Below are positions 2,754-45,025 of a DNA stretch of 64,000 nt, in pieces; position 1 is the first letter of the stretch; every line of letters starts with the position of its first letter. Both the position numbers and the translations under genes were made by a program. The stretch lies in NCBI RefSeq assembly GCF_054482525.1, contig NZ_CM137006.1; one strand, given 5' to 3'. The notes below the pieces were generated by a model. It saw only the letters and a program-made list of their open reading frames with translations. It made no database searches and was not told the DNA's origin.

Positions 2754-4853
2754 ATGAACCGAGAGCAAGCCCAACAACTGCTGCAGACTGCTTTGGCTAA
2801 CCCTGCTGCTGAATTTCGTGATGGTCAGTGGGAAGCCATTGATGCATTGGTTAATCGTCGTCAGAAACTACTGGTTGTACAGCGTACCGGCTGGGGTAAG
2901 AGCTCGGTTTATTTTATTAGTACTAAAATCTTCCGTGACCGCGAGATGGGGCCTACGATTATTGTATCGCCACTGCTTGCATTAATGCGTAACCAGATTG
3001 ATTCAGCGCAGCGTTTGGGAATAGTTGCCGAAACAATGAATTCGGCTAATAGGGAGGATTGGCAGGCTGTAACTCAACGAATTCTCAATAACCAAATAGA
3101 CTGTTTGCTCATTTCCCCAGAGCGGCTAGCAAATGATACCTTTATTGAGACGGTCCTTCAGCCCATTGCCGATCGAATCGCCCTAATGGTAATTGACGAA
3201 GCACACTGTATTTCAGATTGGGGTCATGATTTTCGTCCTGATTATCGCCGTATCGTAAATATCCTTCGTCAATTGCCCGCCAACACCCCAGTACTAGGTA
3301 CGACTGCAACTGCCAATAACCGAGTTGTTGACGATATCCAAGCCCAGCTTGGGGATATACAAATCCACCGAGGTCCTCTTACTCGCGAAAGCCTCGCTCT
3401 GCATACAATGTCTTTACCCGATCAGGCATCTCGTTTAGCTTGGCTCGCCCAAGTTATTCCGATGCTACATGGAACAGGCATTATTTACGCATTAACAGTT
3501 CGTGATGCCGAGCAGGTGGCAGAATGGTTGAGCATGCACGGTATAGTTGCCATGGCATACCACGGTAGCATCGAGGCTGAAGGTTTTGAGAACAGCAATG
3601 CTTACCGTCAGTACTTAGAAGAATTGTTACTTAACAACCAGCTTAAGGTTTTAGTAGCAACGACCGCGTTGGGTATGGGTTATGATAAACCTGATTTAAG
3701 TTTTGTAATCCATTACCAAGCTCCGAGTTCAATTGTTGCATACTACCAGCAGGTGGGTCGGGCTGGGCGCGGTATTGCTCATGCAACAGGTGTACTGATG
3801 TCGGGGATAGAAGATAACGACATCCATGATTTTTTCCGTGATTCTGCATTTCCATCGGAGGATCAAGTTAACGATATTCTTCGAGTGTTGGAAAATAATG
3901 ATGGTCTATCACTCCGCAACATCGAGGAAAAAACTAACCTACGCCACGGCCAGATTGAGAAAGTACTTAAGTTACTGAGTGTAGAAAATCCAGCCCCCAT
4001 CATTAAAAATGAAAATCGTTGGGTTAGGACCACAGTTCGCTATCAAATGGATCATGCCCGAATTGCTCATTTGACAGGACAACGTATTCAGGAATGGGAA
4101 GAGGTTCAAGCGTACCTTACCGACACTGGATGCAAAATGGCATTTCTACGTCGTTCTCTGGACGATCTCGACCCAACTCCATGTGGTAAATGCTCGTCCT
4201 GTATTGGTCAACCAATTATAAATCAAATCATTGACCCTGCTTTGGTACATCGTGCAGGGACTTTCCTAAAACATGCAGAAATGCCGATTACTCCAAAAGC
4301 TCAGGTAGCAGCTAATGCTTTTTTGCAATATGGCTTCAGCGGCAATTTGCCACAGCAGATTAGAGCACAAGAAGGTCGAGTGTTGTCTCGCTGGGGAGAT
4401 GCTGGTTGGGGACGGTTAGTAGCCGATAATAAACGTGCAGATCACTTTGATGATGAGCTAGTGGTTGCTATGGCCGAGATGATTCAGCAGCGTTGGCAAC
4501 CGAATCCAGCGCCACAATGGGTATGCTGTGTACCTTCACGCAATCATGTACAATTAGTCCCTGATTTCGCTCGCCGCTTGGCGGCATGTTTGAGGTTGCC
4601 TTTTTTCAATGCCATCAGCAAGGTTAGAGATAACCAACCTCAAAAGGGGCAACAAAACCGTTTCCATCAATGCCGCAATCTGGACGGTGCTTTTGAGATA
4701 AATCAACCTCTACCTAACACACCGGTTCTACTTGTAGATGACATTGTAGATTCAGGCTGGACGTTAACTGTCATCGCAGCACTCCTACAACGCGCAGGTA
4801 GTGGTAAAGTATACCCTGTTGCACTTGCTTCATCTTCGGTAAAAGACTCATGA
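2754..4853 (+). CDS. RecQ-family helicase fused to a C-terminal phosphoribosyltransferase-like (ComF-like) domain; ShosT-like candidate
   Basis: 699 aa ORF. N-terminal RecQ motifs (FRDGQWEAI, TGWGKSSVY Walker A, DEAHCISDWGHDFRPDY); C-terminus has a PRTase-type motif (VLLVDDIVDSGWT). RBS aaggag upstream. Confidence 0.75.
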   Translation: MNREQAQQLLQTALANPAAEFRDGQWEAIDALVNRRQKLLVVQRTGWGKSSVYFISTKIFRDREMGPTIIVSPLLALMRNQIDSAQRLGIVAETMNSANREDWQAVTQRILNNQIDCLLISPERLANDTFIETVLQPIADRIALMVIDEAHCISDWGHDFRPDYRRIVNILRQLPANTPVLGTTATANNRVVDDIQAQLGDIQIHRGPLTRESLALHTMSLPDQASRLAWLAQVIPMLHGTGIIYALTVRDAEQVAEWLSMHGIVAMAYHGSIEAEGFENSNAYRQYLEELLLNNQLKVLVATTALGMGYDKPDLSFVIHYQAPSSIVAYYQQVGRAGRGIAHATGVLMSGIEDNDIHDFFRDSAFPSEDQVNDILRVLENNDGLSLRNIEEKTNLRHGQIEKVLKLLSVENPAPIIKNENRWVRTTVRYQMDHARIAHLTGQRIQEWEEVQAYLTDTGCKMAFLRRSLDDLDPTPCGKCSSCIGQPIINQIIDPALVHRAGTFLKHAEMPITPKAQVAANAFLQYGFSGNLPQQIRAQEGRVLSRWGDAGWGRLVADNKRADHFDDELVVAMAEMIQQRWQPNPAPQWVCCVPSRNHVQLVPDFARRLAACLRLPFFNAISKVRDNQPQKGQQNRFHQCRNLDGAFEINQPLPNTPVLLVDDIVDSGWTLTVIAALLQRAGSGKVYPVALASSSVKDS

Positions 4854-6175
4854 ATGTATCTAACTTATTGTCAAAAACAGCCCAGGCGACCTTACTTCTG
4901 ACTAGTTATTTTTCTAAAGCAACTAGCGAAAACGCCAAACCACTTTCCAACGCCGAATGGGGACGTTTTGCGCTATGGTTGAAAGAAAAAGCAGTTACGC
5001 CAGCTGACTTGTTGGACTCTGATCCTCAAACCTTACTGAATGGCTGGTACGACTCCCGTATCAGTACGGATCGGATCATTGAGTTGATGAATCGAGGACA
5101 TAGCCTCGCTTTGGCTATGGAGAAATGGCAACGGGCAGGCTTGTGGGTAGTGACACGTTCTGATCCAGAATATCCATGGAGATTAAAACATCGGCTTAAA
5201 ACAGACTCTCCCCCTGTTTTATTTGGCTGTGGCAATAAAGCCTTATTAAATAGAGGGGGATTGGCTGTCATTGGTTCTCGAAATGCCAATGCATCAGACC
5301 TTACTTTTACTGATCACATCGGCGTTAAAGCTGCGGACGAAAATATAGCTGTTGTATCTGGTGCTGCACGTGGAGTAGACGAAACAGCCATGTTAGGTGC
5401 AATGAGGCAAGGTGGAGTTGTAATCGGGATTTTGGCAGATAGCCTGTTAAAAGCTGCGACTAGTGCCAAATGGCGCAAGGGGCTTATGAATGACCATGTT
5501 GTGCTAATATCCCCTTTTTACCCTGAGGCTGGTTTCTATGCGGGAAATGCCATGGCTCGCAATAAATATATCTATTGCTTGTCGGATAGTGCATTGGTTA
5601 TTCATTCTGGTCGAAAAGGTGGAACAATTAGTGGGGCAGAGGAAAATCTTAAGAAAGGATGGGTGCCACTATGGGTCAATCCAACAACCGATCTAGATTC
5701 AGCTAATGCTGACTTAGTGAGCAAAGGGGGACATTGGTTGCCAAGTGATAGTAATGGCCTATCCATCGAGAATTTGCTTAAAAATAATGACAGATCAAAA
5801 ATGCAGTTAAAAGCAGAGCCCCAAGATCTTTTTTCAGAATTGTCGCATCCAGAATTAATTATTGGATCTGCAGAGAAATCGTCAACTCAAGCTCTCGAAA
5901 AAGATTGGACTGCTACTATTAATGAAGAAACTCCCAACCTAATAACTACGGAAAAAAAATTAGAGGAAAAAGAGTTAGATGTAAATCCTATAGACTTTTA
6001 TCTGCTATTCAGGACAGAATTACAGCGATTGGCCGAACATCCAATTACAGTAGATAGGTTGACAGAAGTCACTGGGTTGAATAAATCGCAAGTGCTTGAT
6101 TGGTTGAAACGTGCTGAACAAGATGGTTTGGTAAAAAAACTAAACCGTCCTACAAGATATCAATTAAATGAGTAG
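4850..6175 (+). CDS. DprA/Smf-like Rossmann-fold protein; ShosA-like candidate
   Basis: 441 aa ORF whose ATG overlaps the upstream stop (ATGA). DprA-type motifs: LAVIGSRNAN, VVSGAARGVDETAMLGA, ARNKYIYCLSDSALVIHSG. Confidence 0.7.
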   Translation: MNVSNLLSKTAQATLLLTSYFSKATSENAKPLSNAEWGRFALWLKEKAVTPADLLDSDPQTLLNGWYDSRISTDRIIELMNRGHSLALAMEKWQRAGLWVVTRSDPEYPWRLKHRLKTDSPPVLFGCGNKALLNRGGLAVIGSRNANASDLTFTDHIGVKAADENIAVVSGAARGVDETAMLGAMRQGGVVIGILADSLLKAATSAKWRKGLMNDHVVLISPFYPEAGFYAGNAMARNKYIYCLSDSALVIHSGRKGGTISGAEENLKKGWVPLWVNPTTDLDSANADLVSKGGHWLPSDSNGLSIENLLKNNDRSKMQLKAEPQDLFSELSHPELIIGSAEKSSTQALEKDWTATINEETPNLITTEKKLEEKELDVNPIDFYLLFRTELQRLAEHPITVDRLTEVTGLNKSQVLDWLKRAEQDGLVKKLNRPTRYQLNE

Positions 6176-6271
6176 TAACAGGCTTTAATGAAGCAACTAT
6201 AACCGGTTTGGCCTTAATGATTTTTAGTTAAGCTTGGGCATATAAAAGTTTAGAATTGATATAATGGTATT

Positions 6272-6302
6272 CAATTACATTAGTGTTGAGCTAATGTAAT
6301 TG
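6272..6302. terminator. hairpin between convergent genes (12-bp stem caattacattag / ctaatgtaattg, 7-nt loop)
   Basis: Inverted repeat read directly in the gap between the DprA-like gene end (6175) and the RelA/SpoT-like gene end (6357). Confidence 0.45.
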
Positions 6303-6356
6303 ATCCTGATTTAAATATCATCTATCAGAATTGAACAATTTTACATAGTTTATACT

Positions 6357-7346
6357 TTATGTCTTTCTTTCAAGTGCAACTCCTAGATCCGCTGCCATTT
6401 TTTGGATTAGCCTCCAATCTAGCGGCCATTCTTTTTCTAAAGTAGATCTCCGTCTTTTGATTAACCAGTAAACGAAAATAACAACGCTTTGTTCAAAGAA
6501 ACTACTCCCTTCTTTGCCATCCTGAATTAGTAGTTCGAGCTCAGGAGTCTCTTCTATAAATTGATGTAATCTTTCTATCGTATCGGGTTTGATCACTTCT
6601 TTAAATGTATCTAGAATTAATAAAGTCGATTTTTGATTGTTTGGTTTATTCTTTGTTAAAGCTATGTAGATATTATCTAAAGTTCGCTGAATTCCTGCGT
6701 AACCATCAGATGCTGCGTTAATTGCTTTCGATACTGAACAGAAAAAATCATCCGTAGTTTCTATTAACGCCATGCTTTTTGCTACAGTTCTATGTATATC
6801 TGGTTCAACTATAGTTTTTGCTTTATATATGGCATCATGAGTTAACTCGGCATAGGCATGTTGTAATAAAGATCTAACCTGTATCTCACATGGAATGCCT
6901 TGTTCAATGATAACTCCATTATAATCAAAGGATTCTTTTGCAGTTACTATAAAATGTACGGATTGATACGTGAAAATTAATGGTGTATTTAATCTTTCTT
7001 CTTCGTAGTGTCTTGATGTCTTATAATGCCATTTATTACTACTTTTTATTATTTCACATATTTCATCTATATCTGAAGTAAGTAAAACGACAAACCTGAT
7101 GCCAACTTTATCTTCAATCTCTTGGTAGGGGTTTTTGTATGATTTTTCTTTTCGATGAAAAGCTTTATCGATTAGAGATGTCTTTTCTTTTATTCTCGGT
7201 GTCGCAGGTTGCTTGAGAAAGCTATTGAGGTCCCGCTCTTTATTTTCTGAGAGTTCTTTGCAAATATTTGAGACGACAAAATCTCCCCATGCTTTATACA
7301 TGGGTAGTTCTTTTTCCCAAAGTTGCGAAAACTCTAATTCATTCAT
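6357..7346 (-). CDS. RelA/SpoT-domain nucleotidyltransferase (alarmone-synthetase-like, stand-alone)
   Basis: 329 aa ORF. Synthetase-domain motifs GIRFVVLL, YQSVHFIV, EIQVRSLLQHAYAELTHD; no hydrolase or TGS/ACT region seen. Start ATG 8 nt after upstream stop. Confidence 0.65.
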   Translation of the reverse strand: MNELEFSQLWEKELPMYKAWGDFVVSNICKELSENKERDLNSFLKQPATPRIKEKTSLIDKAFHRKEKSYKNPYQEIEDKVGIRFVVLLTSDIDEICEIIKSSNKWHYKTSRHYEEERLNTPLIFTYQSVHFIVTAKESFDYNGVIIEQGIPCEIQVRSLLQHAYAELTHDAIYKAKTIVEPDIHRTVAKSMALIETTDDFFCSVSKAINAASDGYAGIQRTLDNIYIALTKNKPNNQKSTLLILDTFKEVIKPDTIERLHQFIEETPELELLIQDGKEGSSFFEQSVVIFVYWLIKRRRSTLEKEWPLDWRLIQKMAADLGVALERKT

Positions 7347-7354
7347 TAATTAGC

Positions 7355-8446
7355 TCATTCCTGAAGGGTTATCTTGTCCTTGATGAGGATTGTTGTCCAC
7401 TCAGCAGGTTTACCATCTTTATCGAGTTCACCTATAGTAGATTCAATTACAATATGGCTTTTAAAAACTTCCGCAGGGGCTGTGATTTTTATATTTTTAC
7501 TAAAGTTAAGCTTTCTTGTTTTTAATTTGCTTTCAATATGCTCGTTGTCTCTTGTGAAAGAGGTTTGTGGTATACCAGATTCATGAGCATACTCAAGATA
7601 AAGATCCTTAATACTATCATCAAAAAATCTTTCAGCATAATCTTTAGCTGAAATTACATCCGATTTTTCATGTTTAAGATATGTAACTAATGCATTTTTA
7701 AGCACATTTTTCTTTTCCTCGCTGACATCCAATTCATTAAGAAATTCACTCGTTTTTTCATAGAAATTCTTTGTTGTGCGGGCACTTGTTTCTGGGTAAC
7801 CGCAACCTAAAAAATTTTGATAAAAATATTGTGCTGCAGCTTTACCATCCGACTTACTGATTTGATAGTCAGAAATCATCACATCCCAAGATTTATTAAG
7901 ATCAGTATTATCAAGAGAATTGGTTGATTGGAAAAAACCGGCAGTTTTATAAAGTTTTGTGGATGGTGTAAGTAATATTTCTTCAACGAATTTTAATGAT
8001 ATTTGGCCCGTTTTATCGTCGATTACTTTTTCATATGCACTATAAATATCAGCCTTGATAATTCCAATGAATTTTCTTTTATTTACACCATAGTCGCCAG
8101 AAAAGATTACTACAATTCCGCCTGGAATTGCTCGTCTTGTCTGCGCATCTGCCAGTTTATTAGCTATTGTGTAAGTCTCATCAATATAATCCTCTCCCTC
8201 TTTATCAATTAAAGTTGTAGCAATATAAGGAACATAATCTTTTCCATGCTCCTTTATTTGCATTTTTACGGCTTTAGAACCATCACCTAAAGCGTCGATT
8301 ACTCGTGATTTAAAACCTTGCAAGGCATCAGCATCAAATTTTATAAATGAAGAACCTCTTGTTGGTTCTATTTTGTTTCCTTCTTCGTCGCGCTGATGAA
8401 TTTGGTGGATAATTATTTTGTTAATATTCATTTTGCTGATATTCAT
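7355..8446 (-). CDS. NdpA/YejK-like (NA37 family) nucleoid-associated protein homologue
   Basis: 363 aa ORF. N-terminus IIIHQIHQRDEEG resembles the E. coli YejK IALHQLIKRDEQ region as I recall it. AT-rich. 17-nt gap to upstream gene. Confidence 0.55.
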   Translation of the reverse strand: MNISKMNINKIIIHQIHQRDEEGNKIEPTRGSSFIKFDADALQGFKSRVIDALGDGSKAVKMQIKEHGKDYVPYIATTLIDKEGEDYIDETYTIANKLADAQTRRAIPGGIVVIFSGDYGVNKRKFIGIIKADIYSAYEKVIDDKTGQISLKFVEEILLTPSTKLYKTAGFFQSTNSLDNTDLNKSWDVMISDYQISKSDGKAAAQYFYQNFLGCGYPETSARTTKNFYEKTSEFLNELDVSEEKKNVLKNALVTYLKHEKSDVISAKDYAERFFDDSIKDLYLEYAHESGIPQTSFTRDNEHIESKLKTRKLNFSKNIKITAPAEVFKSHIVIESTIGELDKDGKPAEWTTILIKDKITLQE

Positions 8447-8463
8447 TTCTGTGTAGTTCCATC

Positions 8464-8931
8464 TTATTGATTATCTGATTTTATATTTTTGCTTTCAATA
8501 TATTCTTTGTGAATATTATTCCATTCTTGACTGTCTTTTTCCCAAATAGATTTATATTCATCAAAAAGACTATCAATATCTGACTGGGTTACATCTTCTT
8601 TGGATTTTAAGTAATTAACTTTGTTTCTAAGTTGATACATGGCTAGCAAAGTAGCTTTTTGCCTAAACCATAATTTTTGATAATCAAATCTTGCAGTCCA
8701 CCCACTAACTAGAGTAAGACAGGCACTCACAATAAGAGCAGAATTTTTCTGTATTTTTTCATATCCAGATAAATCGAAGGCTAATATCAGTGTAGTAATA
8801 GTGCTCAAAAATATAGTCATGAAAAAAAATATTTTTAATTTTTTTTTATTCCATTTCGCCTTGCACTTTATTATGTTGATACTTTTATGGATTTCATCCA
8901 GTAAAAACTGTTGAGAAGATGTTATAGACAA
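8464..8931 (-). CDS. small membrane protein with two predicted transmembrane helices (SLATT-like topology, unverified)
   Basis: 155 aa ORF; hydrophobic stretches IFFFMTIFLSTITTLILAF and SALIVSACLTLVSGWTA. First codon is TTG; an internal ATG (MTIFL...) is an alternative start. Confidence 0.45.
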   Translation of the reverse strand: MSITSSQQFLLDEIHKSINIIKCKAKWNKKKLKIFFFMTIFLSTITTLILAFDLSGYEKIQKNSALIVSACLTLVSGWTARFDYQKLWFRQKATLLAMYQLRNKVNYLKSKEDVTQSDIDSLFDEYKSIWEKDSQEWNNIHKEYIESKNIKSDNQ

Positions 8932-8971
8932 TTATCTCACCTGAAATATTTTCACATTGGTAATAAAACTA

Positions 8972-9011
8972 CTCGCACTAACTGGTATGAGCTCATACCA
9001 GTTAGTGCGAG
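8972..9011. promoter_or_regulatory. perfect 40-bp palindrome (ctcgcactaactggtatgag / ctcataccagttagtgcgag) between integrase 3' end and the AT-rich operon
   Basis: Read directly; the two 20-nt arms are exact reverse complements centred on gagctc. A U-rich tract follows on the minus strand, so it may terminate the integrase transcript. Confidence 0.5.
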
Positions 9012-9175
9012 CATGGCTACCGCATTTGATGTGCTCAACAGCTTTGTATTGAGATACTTTTAACAATGTTGTATTTAACTAGCTGATACTATTAATTATA
9101 AATGAGAATCAGAGCAAAAACGAGCGGTAGGTAAGATATAGACCGAAAGCATATAAAACCATAAATATCAAATCA

Positions 9176-10378
9176 TTACACTACCGCATGTAAGATTCTA
9201 CGTACAGAGTGTAGATCAATCAAATAGTCTGAATACCACTGCATCATCTCTCTTCGCCCCTCCAGATATTGCGCATGGTTGTACGTCCCACGAATCGCAT
9301 TCTTATCGACATGCGCAAGCTGGGTTTCAATCCATGCCGTGTTGAACCCTTCCTCGTGCAAAATCGTACTCATCGTGTGACGGAAACTATGCCCCGTTAC
9401 CTTCCCCGTATACCCAATCCGTTTGAATACCTGATTAATACTCGCTTCACTCATCGTTTTACGTGGATCATTGCGCCCTGGGAACACCAAAGGATATTGC
9501 CCGGACATTACTTTGAGCTGTTGTACGATTTCTAGCGCTTGGGTAGAGAGGGGTACAAGATGGGGCCGTTTCATCTTCATACGCTCTGCAGGTATTTCCC
9601 ACACCGCTTTCTCAAGATCAAACTCACTCCAGAAAGCACCTCGAAGCTCGCCAGTACGAACTCCCGTAAGGATAAGCAGACGAGCGGCAAGAACAACTAA
9701 CGGGCTTCCTGTATAACCTGCGAGAGCTTTAAAGAAGTCTGGTAACTCCTCTACTGACAGGAAGGGATAATGCTTCGATTCATGCCCTGACATCGCGCTG
9801 GTTAGGTCCGCTGCAGGATTGTATTCCGCGCGACCTGTAACGATGGCATAACGAAAGACTTCGCTGCAGCGCTGGCGAACCTTCTTGGCCTTCTCTGTCG
9901 CGCCACGGCTTTCGATTCGACGCAGCACATTAAGCAGAACCAGCGGTTTGATTTCATTCACTGGCAGTTGGCCGATATAGGGGAAAATATCTTTATTGAA
10001 GGCTTCGATAATATCGGAGGCATAGCCTTCTGACCACCGGCTCACCTTAGTACCGTGCCACTCAAGCGCCACAGACTGGAACGTGTTGTTGAGCTGCACA
10101 TCGCGAACCAGCTTTTCTTCTTTCTTTGCGAAAGACGGGTCGATACCCTCGGCCAGCTTTTTCTTGGCTTCATCACGCAGAGCCCTCGCTTGTGCAAGGG
10201 AAACAGCCGGATAGACCCCAAAAGCCATACGCTTCTCTTTTCCATTGAAGCGATATTTCATTCGCCAGTATCGAGAACCAGAGGGAACGACTTCAAGATA
10301 CAAGCCAGCACCATCTGCCAGCTTATAGGCTTTCTCTTTGGGTTTAGCAGCGTCTACCTGTCGCGCATTAAGCTTCAT
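9176..10378 (-). CDS. int: P4-type tyrosine integrase (site-specific recombinase)
   Basis: ORF 9176..10417; likely start is the ATG at 10378 (MKLNARQVDAAKPKEKAYKLADGAGLYLEV...) with GGAG 9 nt upstream. Sits directly beside the tRNA-Thr 3' end. Confidence 0.85.
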   Translation of the reverse strand: MKLNARQVDAAKPKEKAYKLADGAGLYLEVVPSGSRYWRMKYRFNGKEKRMAFGVYPAVSLAQARALRDEAKKKLAEGIDPSFAKKEEKLVRDVQLNNTFQSVALEWHGTKVSRWSEGYASDIIEAFNKDIFPYIGQLPVNEIKPLVLLNVLRRIESRGATEKAKKVRQRCSEVFRYAIVTGRAEYNPAADLTSAMSGHESKHYPFLSVEELPDFFKALAGYTGSPLVVLAARLLILTGVRTGELRGAFWSEFDLEKAVWEIPAERMKMKRPHLVPLSTQALEIVQQLKVMSGQYPLVFPGRNDPRKTMSEASINQVFKRIGYTGKVTGHSFRHTMSTILHEEGFNTAWIETQLAHVDKNAIRGTYNHAQYLEGRREMMQWYSDYLIDLHSVRRILHAVV

Positions 10379-10541
10379 TGGGGGCATCTCCCTGGACCGA
10401 ACACAGAATGCCCCCACTTATGCCCCCAACTGCGACTTGATTTCGGTTGAGTCCAGTTGATAACAGGAGATAAGATACGGGCCAGAAACCGCAGTATACG
10501 GGCTTTTAGTTGATTTCGGTAGACTTGGGAAGAGTTTGAAA

Positions 10542-10617
10542 TGGTGCCGATAATAGGAGTCGAACCTACGACCTTCGCATTACGAATGCGCTGCTCTACC
10601 AACTGAGCTATATCGGC
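10542..10617 (-). tRNA. thrW: tRNA-Thr (anticodon CGU), thrW-like
   Basis: Reverse complement reads GCCGATATAGCTCAGTTGGTAGAGCAGCGCATTCGTAATGCGAAGGTCGTAGGTTCGACTCCTATTATCGGCACCA, 76 nt with CCA end and anticodon loop TTCGTAA. Confidence 0.9.
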
Positions 10618-31797: not shown

Positions 31798-31855
31798 CCA
31801 GGGCAAGATTACGAAAGCCCGCTCCCTGCAAGGACTGACGCCAGGTAGTTTCTGT
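31798..31855. repeat. ~57-bp direct repeat copy 2, overlapping the 3' end of the H-repeat transposase gene
   Basis: Near-identical to 31665..31721; overlaps the stop codon region of the ORF at 31809..32945. Confidence 0.7.
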
Positions 31856-32945
31856 CCATGGCTGCTTTTCGCATCTTACGTCTTAACCCTGCCTTGAATA
31901 CATTATCATTCGTTAAAATATTAATAGCGATGTGCCGTATCCCTGAAAATAATTCTGCGGCGTTTCCTCTTCTTATTTTGCAGTCGTCTTCATTCATTAC
32001 CACGTCCAGACGCCAGTGCAGCTTATTCTCCACGTGCCAGTGATTTCGGATCGCTGTGGCGAACTTTTCTGCGGTTAAATCAGCAGAACTGATATAATAT
32101 CTGACCGTCATTTCTGGCTCTTTCTTTTGTTCTGCTATTATTGACCGAAAGGAGACTGCCACGCATAATTTCTTCAGTCCTTTCCATTCAAACGTGAAAT
32201 CAATAAGTTCATCAGGGACATCGCAAACAATATGAAGACGGATTTCTTCTCTGCCGTGACTCTTTTCACTTATTTCGTAACTGTCATGCTCTGGATTATT
32301 TAATTCTTTCAGCGGAAATTTTCCATCAAAGGCTTTATTTAGTCGTCCCTGATTTCCTTTTACAGCGAATAAATAATCACCGCCCTGTTTTTGCATCTTC
32401 TCTGCAATATCTTTCTGGCAACCCATCGCATCAGTTGTGATGATTTTTCCTTTAATATCCAGCATCTTAAGAAGTTCAGGGATAGCTGTGATCTCATTGG
32501 ATTTCTCATCCGTCCTGATCTGTCCGATAACCAGACTGTGCATTGTTGAGAACGCACTAATGACATGAATCGCTCCCTTGCGGCGACTCTTGTCATAAGA
32601 ATGCCGGAGTGTTTTTCCATCAATTGCGATGACGTCTTTATCATCTGAAGTATGGCAATCTCGCATCCAGTTAATAAAGCACTCGTGAAATTTTGCAGGA
32701 CTGATACAGGATACAACTCTGGCGATGGTATCGTGAACAGGAATACCATTTTCAAAATCACCGTATTGTTTTAAAAAATCGAGATGTGTTTCCCCAAAAT
32801 CCTCTATATCTTCCCAACCTTCCGCACCCGAAATAACGGCACAAATAGTCAACAGTAGAATATCCGATAATTTATTTTCCACTTTCCAGCCTTGTCTGTA
32901 ATCGGGGATAATAGAAATATGTTCCATCAATTTTTTAAGCTCCAT
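31809..32945 (-). CDS. H-repeat-associated protein (ISAs1-family transposase, YhhI/YdcC-like)
   Basis: 378 aa translation resembles E. coli H-repeat proteins that accompany Rhs elements ([32 protein letters not shown]...). Confidence 0.8.
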
Positions 32946-33225
32946 TTTGTTCTCCTTAATTATGTAAGGAGTATTTGATCATGTATAAGCAATAAAAAAC
33001 AGCTTTAGGTAATGAGGAATATCTCAATTTTTAAACATAAAATGCGAATTACTTAGTACAAAAAAGCAGCGTTACGTGATCTTTCCCTGGTCCCTGTCCC
33101 GGATTGTAGTACCGGTGCCAGTTGTAGTGCAGTTCGGATTCGTCGTCATACTGCTAGCCCGGATGGCGGAGCAGTTGCTCTAGTCACTCAGAATATTGTA
33201 ATAGTGATAGAGTGCAGTGCCGGTT

Positions 33226-33624
33226 TCAATATCCTAACGCTGGTCTTTTGCCTGTATTAACTGATTTAGCTGGTTTGCTACATATTAATGCCTTCAGATT
33301 TTCCCTTTCCTTGTCTGTGATACTGTCGCAAACCCTACTAGCCCATTCTACTTCACTCTTCTCCAGGCATTCTATTTTCTTATTGCTCATTGTTCTAATG
33401 TTTGGTGTTGCATCTCCATTTAATAACATCCATGTTTCATTTTTCTTCATAAAACATCTTCCATTATGTTCAAAGATATTAGGTGTGAATATATTATCAG
33501 AATCCCATGTTACGACTTGCTCGAGGGCTATATTATCTTGATAGTCCATGCCAGCATTATAATAATCACAAGATATAATTATCATGGAAATAATTATCAC
33601 TAATATATTCCCAAGCATTTCCAT
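33226..33624 (-). CDS. hypothetical small protein with N-terminal hydrophobic signal/lipobox-like segment; candidate Rhs immunity protein
   Basis: 132 aa AT-rich ORF immediately downstream of the Rhs gene; N-terminus ILVIIISMIIISC. Confidence 0.35.
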   Translation of the reverse strand: MEMLGNILVIIISMIIISCDYYNAGMDYQDNIALEQVVTWDSDNIFTPNIFEHNGRCFMKKNETWMLLNGDATPNIRTMSNKKIECLEKSEVEWASRVCDSITDKERENLKALICSKPAKSVNTGKRPALGY

Positions 33625-33873
33625 TTACTTTACCTCTTGAAATTCAAATGGGAATCCAGTGAAAGGACCTTTAGGCATAATATATCTTTGATATCCATAA
33701 AGCTCACCGAGCACTTGTAGGCTTATAGGCGCATTTGTATTCATAGAGGGGTTGTTAAACCCGCACGCCTCAAAAATCATGTTCGTTCGGCTAAAACAAT
33801 TATTTAAAACAGGAAGAGGCCCGAGGTTAATAGTTTTTAGTTTTTTATTAAGGTCTATTGCCTTATTCATCAT
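33625..33873 (-). CDS. hypothetical small protein downstream of Rhs (candidate immunity or orphan toxin-tip fragment)
   Basis: 82 aa AT-rich ORF in the same frame as the Rhs gene, beginning 11 codons after its stop. Confidence 0.3.
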   Translation of the reverse strand: MMNKAIDLNKKLKTINLGPLPVLNNCFSRTNMIFEACGFNNPSMNTNAPISLQVLGELYGYQRYIMPKGPFTGFPFEFQEVK

Positions 33874-33906
33874 ACATTGTTCTTCTTCATCTGTTGTATC
33901 TATTAT

Positions 33907-36900
33907 TCAAATCCAGGTATCTCTGCGGGGTTGCATCTTTTTAAAATAATCAGAGACAGAGGCTCCCATCTCATCCCCAGTTCCCGAACTCATTAATCCA
34001 TATCGATTTGCCGCCGCAGCATGCCCAAAAGGATTATCAGGAACGGGGCCGTTACCTATTATCATAGTACTAAGCCCTAATGGATCAACGTGTTGCACTG
34101 GATTCAGCGGATATTGGTACAGATTCCATCCCCCCTTCAGCCCAATCGGGTCCTGGATGATATACCGCCCCTGCAACGGATCGTAGTACCGGTGACGGTT
34201 ATAATACAGCCCCGACTCCTCATCGTGTTGCTGCCCTGGCAGACGGTACGGCTGGTGCAGGTGATGCGGGTTTTCCTCATTCAGCAGGTTGCCCCATTCA
34301 TCATACTCCCCGCTCCACGCCGTATTTCCGTCTTCGCTGATGAGCGCCAGCGGCAGGCCCCGGTGGTCGCAGTGGTAAAGATGAACTTTTCGCGCCGGTG
34401 TGTATTCCGGCTCCACCTGTTTTTCCAGTTGCTCCACCGTCAGCCCGCACTGCGCAAGCCACGCCCGGCTTTCACTGCTCACGCGGTCTGCCCGGATTTC
34501 CCCCTCCAGCCTGTCCAGCAGCCGCACCAGTTCAGCCGGGAACACCACGCCGTGTCCGTCCTCGCTCCCTTCCTGCTGGAGCTTCTCCGCCAGGCTCCGC
34601 CGCTGCGTTTTCTCCCGCTCGCCGTTGTCTGTTTCGATGCGGATGAGCGGTGTGAAGCTTCCCGGCTCGTATACCGTCTGGATACGTGTGCTGTCGGTCT
34701 GCACCGTCGTCAGGTGGTCGCCGTCCCAGCCGTACCACGTCACCTCCGGTTTACGCGACAGCGACATCCACCCCGTCAGGTCACGCTCCCGCCGCCATAC
34801 CCGTTTCGCCATTCGCCGTCCCAGCGGGTCGTAGAGGTAGCGGCTCTCGACCAGTGGCTCTCCATGCTGTATCCGCGTGTAGAACACCAGGCGGTGCTGG
34901 CTGTCGTAGTGGTGGGTCCGCTCGTCGTCCGTCCGTATCACACCCGCCGGGATGCGGTCCGTCTTCTCCGTCAGCCTGCCGTATTCATCGTGGCGGTAGA
35001 CATAGTGCGCATCCTCCGCGATGCGGTTATCCGGCCACACTGTGAGTGTACTGTCCGGGTGCAGCTCCGGGTCCGGCAGCCGGTTGCCCGCCGGGTCCGT
35101 GGCATACGGGATGCGGATGTCCAGGTCCGGTGCGAGGGTGCGCACGCTCTCCAGCCTGCCCGTGGCGCTGTAGCCGTATTCCCGCGTCTGTCGCGGGCCG
35201 CTGATGCGCACCAGGTCGCCGTTGTCATTCCACCCGTAGTCACGGTCATACACCAGGCTGTTCAGGTGCTGACTCTGTAACTGACCTGCGGGGGTGTATG
35301 TGCTGGTCAGTTCATATGCGGAATTACTGCCTGCCATGCTGCCGAAGCTGCGCACCGTCTCACGGTGCAGCCTGTCCCGCGTATACTCGACCAGCGGCGT
35401 CCCGCCCAGCTTCATTCCCGCCAGGTAACCGCTGCCATACGTCAGCCACTCCACCGGCGGCAGGCTGTCCGGCGTGACGCGGTTTGCCAGCCCCTGTTCG
35501 TTGTATGCCTGTTTCGTCTCATGCTGCCACAGCAGTTCCCCCGTCTCCGGGTTCTTCACCGTCTGGCGCTCACTGGTCAGACGGCCTTTATCGTCATAGC
35601 CGTAGTGGACCGCCACACGGTGGCCTTCACTGGTATGGCTGAGGGTGGTTAACCACCCGTGCTCATCCTACTGCCACTGCTCTGCCGGGTCGCCGTTCAC
35701 CGTCCGGTGCGTGATGCGGTCTGCTTCATCGTAGTACCACTGCGTGACCTGCCCCTCATCCTCGCTGCGGATGAGCTGCCCTGTGGCGCTGTACCGGTAA
35801 CGCTGTGTCCTGCCATCAAAGCCGCGCTGCTCCGTCAGGCGGTCCAGCACATCGTAGGTAAATTCACTCCGGCTGCCGTTCTCGTTGGTCAGCACGGTGA
35901 TGCGCCCGGCAGCGTCATACCCCATGCTGCGCGTCAGCCCGCCTTCCGTCACACTCACCGGACGCCCGCGTTTATCATATGCGATGGTGCTGCGTTTACC
36001 GTCCGGTGATATCGTTGCTGTCAGGTCGCCTGCGGCACTGTACTCATAACGGGTTTCACGCCCCTGCGCATCCTTCTGCCCTGTCAGCCTGCCGCGGCTG
36101 TCATAGAGACTATAAATACTGAGACCTTCCTCCCGGTGAACGGCGATTTGTTGACCGTACCGGTCATACTCATACCGCGTCATGTACCCCGAGCAGTCCG
36201 TGAAGGTCCGAAGCTGACCGTACCGGTTTCGCGTTATTCTCCGCGTTACCCCGATTCCGTCTTCCACCGCGCCGGGCAGGCTACTGCGGGGGGGAGTCAT
36301 AAAACCAGCGCGTAATGTTACCGTTGCGCGAGGTCTCTTCTGCCAGTCGGCCCTGACGGTCATATTTCCGGCTGCTGCGTAAACCATCCGGATATGTCAC
36401 TGAAGTCAGTTGCAACTGGCTGTTATAGCCATACCGCACCGTCCTGCCGTCCGGCAGTATCACTGAAGTCAGCTTTCCAGACGCCATATGCAGCCGGTAC
36501 ACCGTCCGCCGCCCCGCCGCATCCGTCTGCGCCTTCAGCCTCCCCGCCTCATCATACTCGCTGCGGGTGATGCTCCCGTCCGCATGCTCCTTCTTCACCA
36601 CCCGCTTCAGGCCACCTTCGCCTTCCGTGTACAGCACCTCCCGCCGGTTCAGGCTGTCCGTGATGGTCACACGGTCCTGCCCGTACTCAAAGCGGTAGTC
36701 AAGTCCCTCCGGGTTGACCTGCTCCGTCACCCGACCGGTATCATCATACCGGTAGCGGCTCTCCGGCCTCCCTGCATAATGGTGCGCCACCATCCGCCCG
36801 GCGTGCTCCGCATCATAAGTAAACCCGCGCACCTGCGTCCCGCTGCGGTCATACACCGCCCGCAGTTCTCCGCTGGCCGTGTACGTGTAGCGCGCCAGCG

Positions 36901-37855
36901 GCGCAGTCGGCTGTTCATCCGGGTATGCCGGGTCGTGTGTCAGCCACACCGCCTCCAGCCGGATACCGTTATCGGCACCGTATTCTGTACCGGCGGGCAG
37001 CGTGTCGGGGAAAGCTGAAGAAGAGGAAGCAGAACGGGGACCTGCAGGGGAAGATAAAGACGTGGCGCGCTGTTTACGGAAGGCTTCCGCCCGCTGCGCC
37101 TGCGTGGTCAGCGCCAGGTGAAAACGACGGCCCGCGCCGTCCGTCACCCTGGTGATTTCGCCAGCCAGTTCGCCTGCGGCCTCGCGGTGGAAAGCCAGTG
37201 AAAGCCCGAAACCGTCCACCACGCCCGTCAGCACCCGGTATGCAGGCGGCTCCGGCGGCAGCACTTCGTCCGCCTCCGGCACCCGCTCCGGCCAGCCGAG
37301 TATCCACCACGGCCCCTGAAGGCTGTTTGCCGCCAGGTACACATGCGGACTCAGGCGAACATCTTCCGGCAGCACCTGCCAGAGCGCGCTTAGCGGCTGC
37401 GAACTGTGCTGCTCCGCCACCCCGCCCCGCGCCAGCCAGAACGACTCACTGCGGCTGTAACTTATCTCGCCGGGAAACAGGGGTTCAAAGTGAATACTCC
37501 TGCCGCCACTGTCGTTGAGTATCAGGCCTTCATCGCGTATCTGTAAGCGGATATCGAAGGGGGCTTTCCAGCCGGGACCAAACACCCCCACCGGCGCGGG
37601 TGTCCTGGTTCGGTAGCTGCTGTAAGCGCGAGAAAGAATAAACGGCAGCGGGCCGGGCAGCGCAAGGTCCGTCTCGCCCGGCAGCACCTTCGCACCCAGT
37701 AGCGGGTTCACCGGGTTAGCATAGGTAATCCCTCCCGGACACACCGAGCAGGCCACTCCTGTCGGCGCACCTATCAGCCCCCCTGCTGAACCCTGCACAA
37801 TATCCAGTCCCTTGCGGGTCATGTCACCCTGCCGCGCCGCCGGTTTTCCGCTCAT
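33907..37855 (-). pseudogene. rhs: PAAR-Rhs family protein (T6SS effector type), disrupted by a +1 frameshift and an in-frame TAG
   Basis: Three consecutive ORFs (36281..37855, 35668..36387, 33907..35616) tile one Rhs protein: PAAR-like N-terminus, YD repeats, DPIGL core end. Frameshift at the G7 run 36288..36294; in-frame TAG at 35665..35667. Confidence 0.8.
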
Positions 37856-37931
37856 GGTTTATTCCTTTTCTTTTACCTTACATGTCCATACAAATAGTTA
37901 CCTATACTGTCTTTGAATATTGCCCTACCAT

Positions 37932-38381
37932 TTAAAGCCCACCTATTTCTTGCGACAGAAAAGGGATTTCTTTTTTAATCCAATCTATCATTTCATTTTT
38001 TTCAAAACATACGTTAATGCCATTCACACTTCCACATTCACCAAAACCATCAAAATAAATTTCACATTTATTATTTTTATTCGAAACAATGTCAACCCCC
38101 CATCTTATATCGTTATTCCCCTCCTTCCTGAAATACTTCATTTGCAATAAATCAATTATCTCACCAGCATAAAAATCGCTAACCCCATTCACCACCACTT
38201 TATGTTTGTATATTCTCTTGAGACCTTCCTTGCTAAGCGGGGTTAAGGTGGTAACATATGCTGGAAGATTAATTATTTCTATCGTTTTCACACTATCTAT
38301 TCCACACAATTCATTCACTCGCCCCATCCCCAATACCGAAGCAGAAAATAGAGACAATAAAACCATCAAATATTTCATCAT
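37932..38381 (-). CDS. putative secreted immunity protein for the upstream Rhs toxin
   Basis: 149 aa ORF 12 bp downstream of the Rhs C-terminal domain; signal peptide MMKYLMVLLSLFSASVLG; AT-rich. Confidence 0.45.
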   Translation of the reverse strand: MMKYLMVLLSLFSASVLGMGRVNELCGIDSVKTIEIINLPAYVTTLTPLSKEGLKRIYKHKVVVNGVSDFYAGEIIDLLQMKYFRKEGNNDIRWGVDIVSNKNNKCEIYFDGFGECGSVNGINVCFEKNEMIDWIKKEIPFLSQEIGGL

Positions 38382-38393
38382 AAAAAAATATCA

Positions 38394-41300
38394 CTATTCT
38401 GGCGTGCCATTTATTGTTGCCGTCTGCGTTGGTGTATTCACACGATAATACACTCCATTATATGCTGTTCTGGTACACTCACCTAAAGTTTTCGCCGCAT
38501 GCTGTTCAATTAAAGTGATAACTCTCGCCTCTTCTTTATTTTTATATTGTTCATCCGCACGTCTCACAAGCCCCATATAACCATCCTTATCAATAAGATA
38601 TAAGTGCGCATGAGCAAACTCATGCCCCAAACCTAATGCAGGTGATTGTGATTTCGATTTTAAATCAGTTGAACAAAATAAAGCCGCCTTACCATTCCAA
38701 TATATAGTCATTTTATCCGGGTCAAATCTAACGTCGGTTTCATCAATATACTCTATCTTTATGGTTTCTTCAGAGCTTGATAAAAAATCTATAGCTTCTT
38801 TCATTCGTGAATCTTGTTTTAAATACTCAACAGCCTGATTAAAATCACTTGGATCACCGTTAACATGGAATTTTAAACCCAAAGAATCTATAAACCGAAC
38901 AGGGTTTAATGGATATTTATACAGATTCCATTCACCTCTTAGCCCGATTGGATCCTGGGTGATATACCTTCCCTGTAGCGGGTCATAGTACCGGTTCCGG
39001 TTATAGTACAGTCCTGATTCCTCATCATGCTGCTGCCCCGGCAGACGGTATGGCTGGTGCAGGTGATGCGGGTTCTCCTCATTCAGCAGGTTGCCTCATT
39101 CATCATATTCCCCACGCCATTCCGTTGCTCCTTCGGTACTGATGAGCGCCAGCGGCAGCCCCCGGTGGTCACAGTGATAAAGATGAATTTTTCGCTCAGG
39201 TAAATAAACCGGCTCTATCTGTGCCGCCAGCCGCTCCACCGTCAGCCCGCACTGTGCCAGCCACTGGCGGCTTTCACTGCTCACGCGGTCTGCCCGGATT
39301 TCCCCCTCCAGCCTGTCCAGCATCCTCACAAGTTCTGCCGGGAACACCACACCGTGGCCGTCCTCGCTTCCTTCCTGCTGCAACTTCTCCGCCAGGCTCC
39401 GCCGCTGCGTTTTCTCCCGCTCGCCGTTGTCTGTTTCGATGCGGATGAGTGGTGTGAAGCTTCCCGGCTCGTATACCGTCTGGATCCGGCTCTGTTGTGT
39501 CTGTATCGTCGTCAGCCTGTCACCGTCCCAGCCGTACCACGTTACCTCCGGTTTACGCGACAGCGACATCCACCCCGTCAGGTCACGTACCCGCCGCCAC
39601 ACCCGTTTACCCGTCCGGCGGCCCAGCGGGTCGTAGAGGTAGCGGCTCTCCACCTGCGGCTCGCCATGCTGTATCCGCGTGTAGAACACCAGGCGGTGCT
39701 GGCTGTCGTAGTGGTGGGTCCGCTCGTCGTCCGTCCGTATCACACCCGCCGGGATGCGGTCCGTCTTCTCCGTCAGCCTGCCGTATTCATCGTGGCGGTA
39801 GACATAGTGCGCATCCTCCGCGATGCGGTTATCCGGCCACACTGTGAGTGTACTGTCCGGGTGCAGCTCCGGGTCCGGCAGCCGGTTGCCCGCCGGGTCC
39901 GTGGCATACGGGATGCGGATGTCCAGGTCCGGTGCGAGGGTGCGCACGCTCTCCAGCCTGCCCGTGGCGCTGTAGCCGTATTCCCGCGTCTGTCGCGGGC
40001 CGCTGATGCGCACCAGGTCGCCGTTGTCATTCCACCCGTAGTCACGGTCATACACCAGGCTGTTCAGGTGCTGACTCTGTAACTGACCTGCGGGGGTGTA
40101 TGTGCTGGTCAGTTCATATGCGGAATTACTGCCTGCCATGCTGCCGAAGCTGCGCACCGTCTCACGGTGCAGCCTGTCCCGCGTATACTCGACCAGCGGC
40201 GTCCCGCCCAGCTTCATTCCCGCCAGGTAACCGCTGCCATACGTCAGCCACTCCACCGGCGGCAGGCTGTCCGGCGTGACGCGGTTTGCCAGCCCCTGCT
40301 CGTTGTATGCGTGTTTCGTCTCATGCTGCCACAGCAGTTCCCCCGTCTCCGGGTTCTCCACCGTCTGGCGTTCGCCGGTCAGGCGGCCTTTATCGTCATA
40401 GCCATAGTGGACGGCAACACGGTGGCCTTCGCTCAGGTGGCTGATTTCTCTCAGCCAGCCGTGGCCATCATACTGCCACTGCTCTGCCGGTTCGCCGTTC
40501 ACCGTGCGGTGAGTGATACGGTCCGATTCATCGTAGTACCAGAGGATGACAAGCCCCTCATCTTCACTCTGCGTGAGTTTTCCGGTCAGGTCATAATGAT
40601 AACGTTGCGTCCGCCCGTCAAAGCCGCCCTGCTGTACCAGGCGGTCCAGCGCATCGTAGCTGAAGTCGCTGTGACTGCCGTTCTCGTTGGTCAGGCTGAT
40701 GACACGTCCTGCCGCGTCATACTCCATACTGCGCGTCAGCCCGCCCTGCGTGGTGCTGACCGCCTTTCCCCACGCATCGTACTGTGTCTCGCTCCGGTTG
40801 CCGTCCGGGGTGATAACGGCAGTCAGGTCGCCTGCGGCGTTGTATTCATACCGCGTTTCACGGCCCTGTGCGTCTTTCACCGAGGTTAACCGGCCACGGT
40901 TGTCATAGCGGCGGTAAAGGCTGATGCCTTCCTCGCGGTGGACCGCCGTCATCTGGCCGAAGCGGTCATACTCATAGCGGGTCTGGTAGCCCGAGCAGTC
41001 GGTGAACGCCAGCAACTGACCGTAGCGGCTCCAGGTCATCTGCCGGGTGCTGCCCGTCGCATCTGTTGTCGTGGCCGGTAATTCACTGTGCGGATTATCA
41101 TAAGCATACCGGATGACGTCCCCACTGCGCGATGTCTCCGATACCAGCCTGTCCCGCTCATCATACGCCCGGCGGCTCTCCAGCCCGTCCGGGTACACCA
41201 CCGCCGTCACCAGGTTCCCGTCGTTATAGTAAAATTTCGTCTCCCGCCCGTCCGGCGTGGTGATGTCCGTGATGTCGCCTGACACCACATTCAGACCGTA

Positions 41301-42641
41301 CTCTGTCCGCCGTCCCGCCGCGTCCGTCTGCGCCGTAAGCCGCCCCACCGGGTCATACCCGCTGCGCGTGACGCTGCCGTCCGCCAGTTCTTTTTTCACC
41401 ACCCGCTTCAGCCCGGCCCCGCCTTCTGTATGCAGCACCTCACGCCGGTTCAGGCTGTCCGTGACGGTGATGCGGTCCTGCTCATACTGGTAGCGGTAAC
41501 TCAGGCCTGCCGGGTTCAGCTGCTCCACCACCCGCCCCGCATCGTCGTAGCGGTAGCGCATCTCCGGCCTTCCCGCGTAACGGTGCGCCACCATCCGGCC
41601 CGGGTGCTGCGCGTCATACGTGAAAGCGCGCACCTGCGTATTGCTGCGGTCATATACCGCCAGCAGTTCACCGGCTTCCGTATACGTGTACCGCACCAGT
41701 GGCGCACCGGGCAGGCTCTCCGGGTATGCCGGGTCGTGCATCAGCCACACCGCCGAAAGACGGATGCCCCTGTCGGGGCCGTATTCGGTACCGGGCAGTG
41801 TGTCGGGGAACGCTGAGGCTGAGAGAGGGCGGGAACGGTCAGAAGAAGATAGCGAAGAGGTGCGGGCCTCTTCCGCACGCTGCGCCTGCGTGGTCAGCAC
41901 CAGACGGAACTCCCGCCCGGCACCGTCCGTCACGCCGGTGATTTCCCCGGCCAGGTCACCGGCGGCCTCACGCCGGTACGTCAGCGTCCGCCCGAAGCGG
42001 TCCGCCAGCCCGGTAAGCACCCGGTACGGCGGCAGCGGCGCTGGCAGTACGTCCTCAGCACCCGGCACCCGCTCTGACCACCCCAGTATCCACCACGGTC
42101 CCTGTGCGCTGTTGGTCGCCAGGTAAAGATGCGGGCTTAACCGGATATCCGGCGGCAGCGACGCCCACAGCCGTGCCAGCGTGTGGCCGTCCGGCTGCGC
42201 TGCCTTACCACCGCGAACCAGCCACATTGACTCGCTGCGGCTGTACACCGCCTCCCCCGGCAGCAGCGGCTCAAGGTGAATGCTCCGCCCGCCGTTGTCG
42301 TTGAGTATCAGTCCGTCATCACGTAGCTGTAAGCGGATATCAGAAGGCGCTTTCCAGCCGGGGCCAAAAATCCCCACCGGCGCAGGCGTCTTCGTCCGGT
42401 AGCTGCTGTAGGTGCGGGAGAGAATGAACGGCAGCGGGCCGGGCAGCGCAAGGTCCGTCTCGCCGGGCAGCACCTTCGCCCCCAGCAGCGGATTTACCGG
42501 GTTGCCCGAAGTCATCCCGCCCGGACACACCGAGCACGCCACGCCGGTGGGCGCGCCAATTCTTACACCTGCCGAACCCTGGACAATGGGACCGCCATAC
42601 TGAGTCATATCTCCCTGACGCGCCGCTGGTTTTCCGCTCAT
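38394..42641 (-). pseudogene. rhs: PAAR-Rhs family T6SS effector with HExxH (zinc-metallopeptidase-like) C-terminal domain; frame interrupted by in-frame TGA
   Basis: Main ORF 39096..42641 (1181 aa) ends at a TGA where the paralogue has TGG (Trp); the same frame continues through the DPIGL core end into a C-terminal domain containing [10 protein letters not shown]. Confidence 0.75.
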
Positions 42642-42707
42642 GATTCAATTCCTTCTTCTGTTTATTTTTAATGCTTGTTTGTTACTGAATACCGAACAGG
42701 TACGGGA

Positions 42708-44816: not shown

Positions 44817-45025
44817 AGCAACCTCCGGGTTTAAGGAAAAACAGACAGTTCGCTGTTAAAGCGGCTGTAACAGTACAGTGTTACGCTTGCGTTCAGGCAC
44901 GCTACCGCCGAAGTTTCCGGCATCCGCCATCTCCCGTGAACGTAACCCCTTACTGACAACCTTTCTTTTTACGGCGTAATACAAAAACAGCATCCGGCCT
45001 AATAGCCGGATGCTGTTGGCTTAAC

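Follow-up and report, generated by a model that had tools for sequence, protein, structure and literature searches.

A probable SLATT-bearing, three-gene form of type I PANGU on a mobile island of Escherichia coli

What kind of system is formed by three tightly packed genes at positions 6357-8931 of a 64,000-nucleotide (nt) stretch of DNA (contig NZ_CM137006.1 of RefSeq assembly GCF_054482525.1; the whole stretch is called the window below), and what does the first of them, coding for a small membrane protein, add to the other two? The window is Escherichia coli chromosome, with proBA and phoE among its genes. A preliminary description, drawn up from the DNA letters and their translations, had taken the three genes for an undescribed combination with a possible function in phage defence or toxicity. 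They are assigned here to a three-gene, SLATT-bearing form of type I PANGU, situated on a mobile island. PANGU was defined in a preprint dated 6 April 2026 (bioRxiv 10.64898/2026.04.06.716658), which was the sole paper found in the literature search to tie SLATT or NA37 proteins to toxic small alarmone synthetases (toxSAS). The idea of an undescribed combination had to be given up, since the pair of NA37 and GRel proteins is that of type I PANGU and a subset with SLATT was already mentioned in the preprint; the locus adds to a known kind, and its SLATT-bearing sub-lineage had been noted previously and left uncharacterised. The expectation of an anti-phage operon built on a RelA/SpoT-type enzyme is supported by the homology to PANGU and by the setting in a defence island.

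The combination had looked unnamed because PADLOC v2 (2023) contains no model for type I PANGU. Applied to the three genes, this program returned no named system, only weak matches to the PDC-S33/S01 and to the CBASS '2TM effector' profiles. The core pair represents a newly described sensing principle, in which a nucleoid protein reports the destruction of the host chromosome, and the locus is a natural enterobacterial example of it, rare in E. coli and found in nearly identical form in Klebsiella, the small thrW island in question also carrying the PsyrTA defence system.

Assignment to type I PANGU

The three genes are read from the minus strand. The first (8464..8931) codes for a SLATT-domain protein of 155 amino acids (aa) with two transmembrane segments and represents the accessory third gene of the system; its open reading frame (ORF) begins with TTG, and AGGTGA stands ahead of it. 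The second (7355..8446) codes for an NA37/YejK-like nucleoid-associated protein of 363 aa, a homologue of the sensor and activator Pag1A, and the third (6357..7346) for a GRel-type small alarmone synthetase of 329 aa, a homologue of the effector Pag1B. All three were delimited by ORF calling, and the coordinates, together with the gaps of 17 nt between the SLATT and NA37 genes and of 8 nt between the NA37 and synthetase genes, reproduced exactly those of the preliminary description. RefSeq annotates these three coding sequences in E. coli SCU-102 as well, a strain with which the window agrees at 100%. The earlier family assignments all held in profile hidden Markov model searches, with Pfam RelA_SpoT at residues 51-177 of the synthetase (independent E-value 1.3e-15), Pfam NA37 at residues 12-326 of the second protein (2.4e-17), and NCBIfam SLATT_1 in the first (86.9 bits, the cutoff being 41). 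The motifs GIRFVVLL, YQSVHFIV and EIQVRSLLQHAYAELTHD, by which the synthetase had been recognised, are present in its translation. The GC content was found to be 0.30-0.35 over positions 6001-9000 as against 0.50-0.58 in proBA and the integrase gene, which bears out the AT-richness ascribed to the operon relative to its flanks.

Type I PANGU consists of a YejK-like nucleoid protein, Pag1A, and a GRel small alarmone synthetase, Pag1B; in the latter, a helical linker connects the N-terminal synthetase domain to a C-terminal 'DMK' domain that binds the partner (bioRxiv 10.64898/2026.04.06.716658). The type I criteria of the preprint are an NdpA/NA37 protein of 300 aa or more with E < 1e-10, less than 40 bp between the genes, and known defence genes within 10 kb. 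Both gaps in the window are shorter than 40 bp, and a separate defence system, PsyrT/PsyrA, converges with the operon at a distance of 180 bp, well inside those 10 kb. The operon is composed of three co-oriented genes, whereas type I PANGU is defined as bicistronic. The preprint mentions a SLATT gene in 'several Cluster 1 operons', Cluster 1 being type I, and did not study it.

The locus of Ferrimonas futtsuensis DSM 18154 (L038), the species of the characterised system PANGU-Ff, served for comparison. The synthetase of the window shares 39% identity with that of L038 over residues 1-324, and the alignment shows that the catalytic tyrosine of the G-loop is kept (Y127, equivalent to Y129 of F. 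futtsuensis (Ff) Pag1B). Residues R51, K53, D79, Y127, E154, Q156 and R158 do not vary among 64 homologues, and the catalytic residues are likewise invariant in the SLATT-bearing loci. In the AlphaFold2 model (pLDDT 92.5) an alpha/beta domain (1-175) is followed by a long helix (182-231) and then by a helical bundle (239-320), a layout that matches the architecture of Pag1B as described. Judged by identity and predicted architecture, gene 3 is thus a GRel-type synthetase and a full-length homologue of Pag1B. Earlier it had been regarded as a bare synthetase; this proved incorrect, as about 125 aa at its C-terminus form a conserved helical domain that is homologous to the DMK domain.

Among structures in the PDB, the N-terminal domain of this model superposes best on RelQ/RelP (E 6.5e-10, TM-score 0.76-0.85), the match to CapRel being weaker (E 1e-5, TM-score 0.38-0.42), and the C-terminal domain has no fold counterpart there. 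RelQ and RelP (SAS1/SAS2), which are housekeeping small alarmone synthetases, share the N-terminal fold and are homotetrameric producers of (p)ppGpp, but they are devoid of the linker helix, the C-terminal domain and the NA37 partner, and they do not reside on defence islands. In a homologous locus of Bradyrhizobium barranii (L050, 5959-7332) the synthetase ORF measures 457 aa, aligns only with query residues 1-249 and may hold a different C-terminal domain.

The NA37 protein is 33% identical to Ff Pag1A from end to end; a sequence search of the PDB retrieved no solved structure of Pag1A, Pag1B or an NA37 relative. To follow the linkage of the two genes, genomes representing one species each were scanned with an alignment of gene 3 homologues, which yielded 79 loci. 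In 77 of them the gene immediately ahead of the synthetase gene codes for an NA37 protein and usually overlaps it; the remaining two contigs end at the synthetase. It follows that the pair is an obligate unit, found in Gammaproteobacteria and several other phyla.

Compared with the type I systems of F. futtsuensis and Pseudomonas aeruginosa and with the E. coli construct, the window displays the same gene pair in the same order, with tight spacing and a location in a defence island, and it has in common with the Ff system full-length homology of both proteins, the catalytic tyrosine and a two-domain synthetase. It differs in the additional upstream SLATT gene, in a C-terminal synthetase domain that is neutral and not acidic, and in the residues of the Ff interface and DNA contacts, most of which are changed.

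The SLATT gene

Besides NCBIfam SLATT_1, the first protein gave weaker Pfam matches to SLATT_4, DUF4231 and SLATT_1, and its match to the CBASS-type '2TM effector' profiles of PADLOC has an E-value of 4e-6. The AlphaFold2 model (pLDDT 79.6) contains helices at residues 3-51, 58-81, 84-110 and 116-153, the two hydrophobic spans being located within the first two of these as a transmembrane hairpin. A basic N-terminal helix is predicted to run into the first transmembrane segment, followed by the second and by a cytoplasmic helical hairpin, in which the conserved motifs FDYxKLWxRQK and IWExxxxEW are located. The net charge is +6 at the N-terminus and -1 over the C-terminal 68 aa.

The question raised in the preliminary description, whether the trio co-occurs in other genomes, received a divided answer: the NA37 gene adjoins the synthetase gene in 77 of the 79 loci, as stated above, but SLATT is present in only 12. 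A SLATT_1 gene stands upstream of NA37 in ten, in Vibrio, Photobacterium, Enterovibrio, Pseudoalteromonas, Oceanobacter, Oceanospirillum and an enterobacterium. A neighbour-joining tree, computed on the concatenated NA37 and synthetase sequences, groups these ten and the window in one clade. Independently of this clade, a SLATT_1 gene is found downstream of the synthetase in Methylomonas (L067), and a SLATT_4 gene, belonging to a different family, upstream of the pair in Pseudomonas caspiana (L053). Read from this tree and from the gene orders, SLATT was recruited to type I PANGU at least three times.

Within the SLATT-bearing lineage the association appears stable. Stop and start codons of the operon genes overlap in several relatives; the pairwise identities of SLATT track those of NA37 and of the synthetase (Mantel r 0.91 and 0.93, respectively, p = 2e-4); and the dN/dS ratio of SLATT, 0.12-0.24, is similar to that of the other two genes. 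From the clade, the overlaps within the operon, the co-variation and the purifying selection it is concluded that SLATT is maintained and co-inherited and is not a chance neighbour. Close homologues in Klebsiella, Yersinia, Citrobacter, Pectobacterium and other Enterobacteriaceae always occur in the order integrase-SLATT-NA37-RelA_SpoT. The remaining value of the locus lies in this gene, recruited at least three times and stably co-inherited.

Several observations on SLATT genes were made in passing. Pairs of SIR2 and SLATT with overlapping coding regions occur in two loci (L094, 586-1861; L095, 247-1522), showing that the same SLATT subfamily teams with quite different enzymes. The 5' part of the gene in the window contains a run of nine A and a run of eight T at 8839-8847 and 8822-8829 (codons 29-31 and 35-37). 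In Enterobacteriaceae bacterium B14 (L001, 4527-4883), whose SLATT is 97% identical, a run of eight A leads to a frameshift and an ORF of 118 aa; this represents either a sequencing error or slippage-prone switching of SLATT on and off. In two type I loci that lack SLATT, an ORF with two predicted transmembrane segments directly follows the synthetase (L068, 2128-2589; L035, 7115-7510), in L068 overlapping its stop codon; neither has an NCBIfam match, and they may be further membrane partners.

Proposed mechanism and competing explanations

Pag1A of the characterised systems has a non-specific affinity for long DNA and is located in the nucleoid, and Pag1B on its own is an inactive, non-toxic tetramer. 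Cleavage by the EndoII nuclease of phage T4 and subsequent further degradation of the genome lead to the release or relocation of Pag1A, which binds the DMK domain with nanomolar affinity to give an active A2B heterotrimer. This complex converts ATP and GTP, GDP or GMP into AMP and (pp)pGpp, transcription and translation halt, and the infection is aborted; alarmone synthesis together with depletion of nucleoside triphosphates (NTP) is inhibitory in vitro. T4 escapes from the characterised PANGU through mutations in EndoII, and homologues conferred protection from phages when supplied as two-gene constructs (bioRxiv 10.64898/2026.04.06.716658).

By homology with these systems, the NA37 protein of the window would sit as a dimer on the chromosomal DNA, the synthetase being kept inactive as a cytoplasmic homotetramer. 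Breakdown of the host chromosome by a phage would set the NA37 protein free, and its binding to the C-terminal helical domain of the synthetase would split the tetramer into an active A2B heterotrimer able to turn ATP and GTP, GDP or GMP into AMP and (pp)pGpp. Loss of nucleotides and a burst of alarmone would then stop transcription and translation, and the infected cell would yield no phage. The SLATT protein, a co-inherited accessory, may be a membrane-perturbing second effector triggered by the same activation event. With the role of SLATT left out of the estimate, it is considered very probable that the trio is a type I PANGU-like system acting by NA37-activated alarmone synthesis, and we infer that this locus would behave like the Ferrimonas and Pseudomonas systems.

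Several findings weigh against this interpretation. The C-terminal domain of the synthetase, although homologous and well folded in the model, has, as calculated from its sequence, a net charge of 0 compared with -9 in Ff Pag1B (the family mean being -3.4 and the range -23 to +3), and the 'DNA-mimic' acidity is not evident from this sequence. None of the six salt-bridge pairs of the Ff interface is kept as a pair of opposite charges, and no family-wide charge covariation was detected at these positions. The Ff Pag1A residues K200, R203 and K204, which contact DNA, have a basic equivalent in the window in one case out of three (K202, matching R203, a position that is basic in 60 of 77 family members). 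Since Pag1A-Pag1B pairs co-evolve in a pair-specific manner according to the preprint, these features were rated as neither confirming nor refuting membership. As regards SLATT, a Foldseek search of its model against the PDB retrieved only generic helical hairpins with E > 0.1, and the profile and fold searches recognised no nucleotide-binding or acidic partner-binding domain in its 155 aa. It is missing in 67 of the 79 loci, and its role could thus be minor; its nearest relatives outside PANGU, mostly on short contigs, have heterogeneous partners (SIR2, unknown proteins), among which there is neither NA37 nor Rel. Such mixed partners do not discriminate between the models for the trigger of SLATT discussed below. 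The absence from 67 loci, together with the protection obtained with the two-gene constructs of the preprint, indicates that SLATT is dispensable for the core mechanism.

Two further leads were abandoned. In a pairwise alignment two of the Ff salt bridges seemed to be present in reversed polarity; the family alignment put other residues there, with no covariation, and the idea was dropped. A less acidic C-terminal synthetase domain in the SLATT-bearing loci was likewise rejected, the means of -2.7 and -3.4 showing no real difference.

Small SLATT proteins with two transmembrane segments are known from CBASS, DRT10/UG17 and DRT3, where, as here, they are encoded beside an enzyme that produces nucleotides or nucleic acids and are presumed to be membrane effectors. 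The partner in those systems is a CD-NTase or a reverse transcriptase, whereas in the window it is a RelA/SpoT synthetase, and no CD-NTase/SMODS cyclase was found in the operon or its flanks. The activation of SLATT is called a central open question in the DRT10 preprint. We infer that the SLATT protein of the window is an accessory membrane effector, and three possibilities were ranked for what governs it. The nucleotide product of the synthetase is put first as its trigger, tentatively; a direct interaction with the NA37 protein once released, or with the complex, comes second and is more doubtful; a regulatory or anchoring role comes third and appears rather unlikely. Because SLATT here adjoins a biochemically tractable pair with a defined trigger, the locus is a good place to ask what switches SLATT on.

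It is tempting to speculate that the synthetase is mainly a generator of a second messenger, in the manner of CBASS, and that SLATT is the killing pore, with (pp)pGpp or a related nucleotide as the ligand that gates it. The match of SLATT to the CBASS '2TM effector' profiles, its capture beside GRel on at least three separate occasions and the invariance of the synthetase catalytic residues in SLATT-bearing loci are consistent with such an arrangement, which is nevertheless regarded as unlikely: two-gene PANGU protects without SLATT, alarmone synthesis and NTP depletion being inhibitory in themselves in vitro, the 155-aa protein has no detectable ligand-binding domain, and related SLATT proteins pair with SIR2, which is an effector and not a signal generator. 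The stronger proposal that the SLATT-bearing clade is a functionally distinct subtype of PANGU, in which the alarmone is an immune second messenger gating a SLATT pore, seems less likely still. If it were true, (pp)pGpp would become a defence signalling nucleotide in the sense of CBASS and Thoeris, and a SLATT-activating ligand would be defined for the first time.

Type II PANGU, made up of the nucleoid-associated protein Pag2A and the transmembrane effector Pag2B, resembles the window in that a nucleoid-associated protein is encoded beside a small membrane protein, and it raises the alternative that SLATT and the synthetase work as parallel effectors. The identity of SLATT co-varies with that of NA37 (r 0.91) as strongly as with that of the synthetase, which fits this view. 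However, Pag2B is bound through an N-terminal acidic domain and has its transmembrane part at the C-terminus, whereas the SLATT protein of the window has a central two-segment hairpin and, with the charges given above, no acidic DNA-mimic-like domain, and it is accompanied by a synthetase; among the loci examined, moreover, no operon of NA37 and SLATT lacking a synthetase was encountered. Parallel action of this kind is also judged unlikely.

In the preliminary description the synthetase had been placed in the logic of toxSAS toxin-antitoxin modules and of CapRel, which would mean a constitutively toxic synthetase restrained by an antitoxin, either NA37 or SLATT. The synthetase fold is indeed common to toxSAS and CapRel, the tight gene packing and the mobile island would suit such a module, and in CapRel, FaRel and PhRel, as in the window, a RelA/SpoT synthetase fold is the effector of abortive infection on mobile elements. 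CapRel, however, is auto-inhibited by a fused antitoxin domain, senses a phage capsid protein and pyrophosphorylates tRNA, unlike the PANGU-type synthetase, which depends on a nucleoid protein for activation in trans and has (pp)pGpp as its product. The homologous synthetases show no toxicity or activity by themselves, CapRel is a poor fold match beside RelQ/RelP, and PADLOC finds no match to CapRel or to a known toxSAS antitoxin, the neighbours being NA37 and SLATT. The toxin-antitoxin and CapRel framing is probably wrong, because in the homologues the NA37 protein activates the enzyme, which produces (pp)pGpp and not pyrophosphorylated tRNA; a classical toxSAS module in particular is highly improbable. 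Hardly more credible is a function outside defence, namely an island-encoded nucleoid protein that regulates or silences genes of the island, accompanied by an alarmone synthetase for stress response: NdpA-type proteins do regulate mobile elements, such as NdpA2 on PAPI-1 according to the title of PMC8565334, but the linkage of NA37 and GRel is strict across phyla, PsyrTA flanks the locus, and phage protection by homologues was shown experimentally.

Island context and relatives

On its upstream side the type I PANGU operon is bordered by a gene for a P4-type tyrosine integrase (9176..10417, minus strand; NCBIfam PRK09692, 300 bits), beyond which the integration site, the tRNA-Thr(CGT) gene thrW, is located (10542..10617, minus strand; ARAGORN, Rfam tRNA 71.8 bits). 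On the other side is the pair of PsyrT, a RecQ-like helicase with a phosphoribosyltransferase domain, and PsyrA, a DprA-like protein (2754..6175, plus strand; PADLOC 1045 and 563 bits, both full-length), whose genes at 2754-4853 and 4850-6175 overlap by 4 nt. The setting between an integrase at tRNA-Thr and a defence-like pair was thus confirmed and the pair identified.

The block integrase-SLATT-NA37-Rel-PsyrA-PsyrT recurs nearly unchanged at the same proA/tRNA-Thr site in Klebsiella (L088-L091), with protein identities of 97-99% and a synonymous divergence (dS) of 0.03-0.07, values that point to recent horizontal exchange with this genus. The horizontal acquisition suggested earlier is supported by this near-identical block, by the AT-rich genes and by the P4-type integrase at tRNA-Thr. 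Signs of decay were seen in some Klebsiella copies: L088, L090 and L091 have the island integrase broken into two ORFs (6562-7688 in L088 and L090), and in L091 the NA37 gene (8486-9576) is divided in the same way.

In E. coli the pair was found in three of 5,426 complete genomes, that is, in SCU-102 and in two that carry a diverged trio with about 69.5% nucleotide identity; the diverged trio also lies at thrW, beside relaxase and mobilisation genes. This second trio, of DUF4231/SLATT protein, nucleoid-associated protein and synthetase with about 35-50% amino acid identity, is represented by E. coli BEC1-S17-ESBL-07 (L081, 7622-10172), and a conjugative IncFIB plasmid of Klebsiella pneumoniae carries another (L082, 4430-6993).

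The intergenic region between the integrase and SLATT genes (8932-9175) contains a hairpin with a perfect 20-bp stem (8970..9013, minus strand), which was detected in a terminator scan and lies 39 nt upstream of the SLATT start; its membership in the system is tentative. The predicted RNA fold has an energy of -52.6 kcal/mol (z = -8.0). The hairpin is kept upstream of SLATT in Klebsiella (L089), in Enterobacteriaceae bacterium B14 (L001) and in a diverged cassette (L083), and its arms show compensatory changes, from ACTAAC/GTTAGT to GCCGAC/GTCGGC and ACCAAC/GTTGGT, around the invariant core CTGGTATGAGCTCATACCAG. It could terminate transcription of the integrase gene, act as a regulatory element in the 5' region of the operon or serve as an operator. 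The tRNA was the only match in an Rfam scan of the window.

To the left, the island continues (1-2700 of the window; 1-5800 of L080) with genes of the inovirus Gp2 family and for zinc-ribbon, helix-turn-helix, DUF932 and GTPase-family proteins. A repeat of the 3' end of the tRNA gene was sought in the window and in the 5.8 kb beyond it (L080) and was not found, which places the far boundary of the island outside the window.

Farther along, the window contains a type VI secretion and Rhs cluster of unusual composition (31809-45544, minus strand), with a GC content of 0.60-0.66 and AT-rich interruptions. Besides a complete RHS core (39096-42641) and two more fragments of such a core (36281-37855 and 33907-35616), it encodes Hcp (45026-45544), VgrG (42708-44816) and an ISAs1 transposase (31809-32945).

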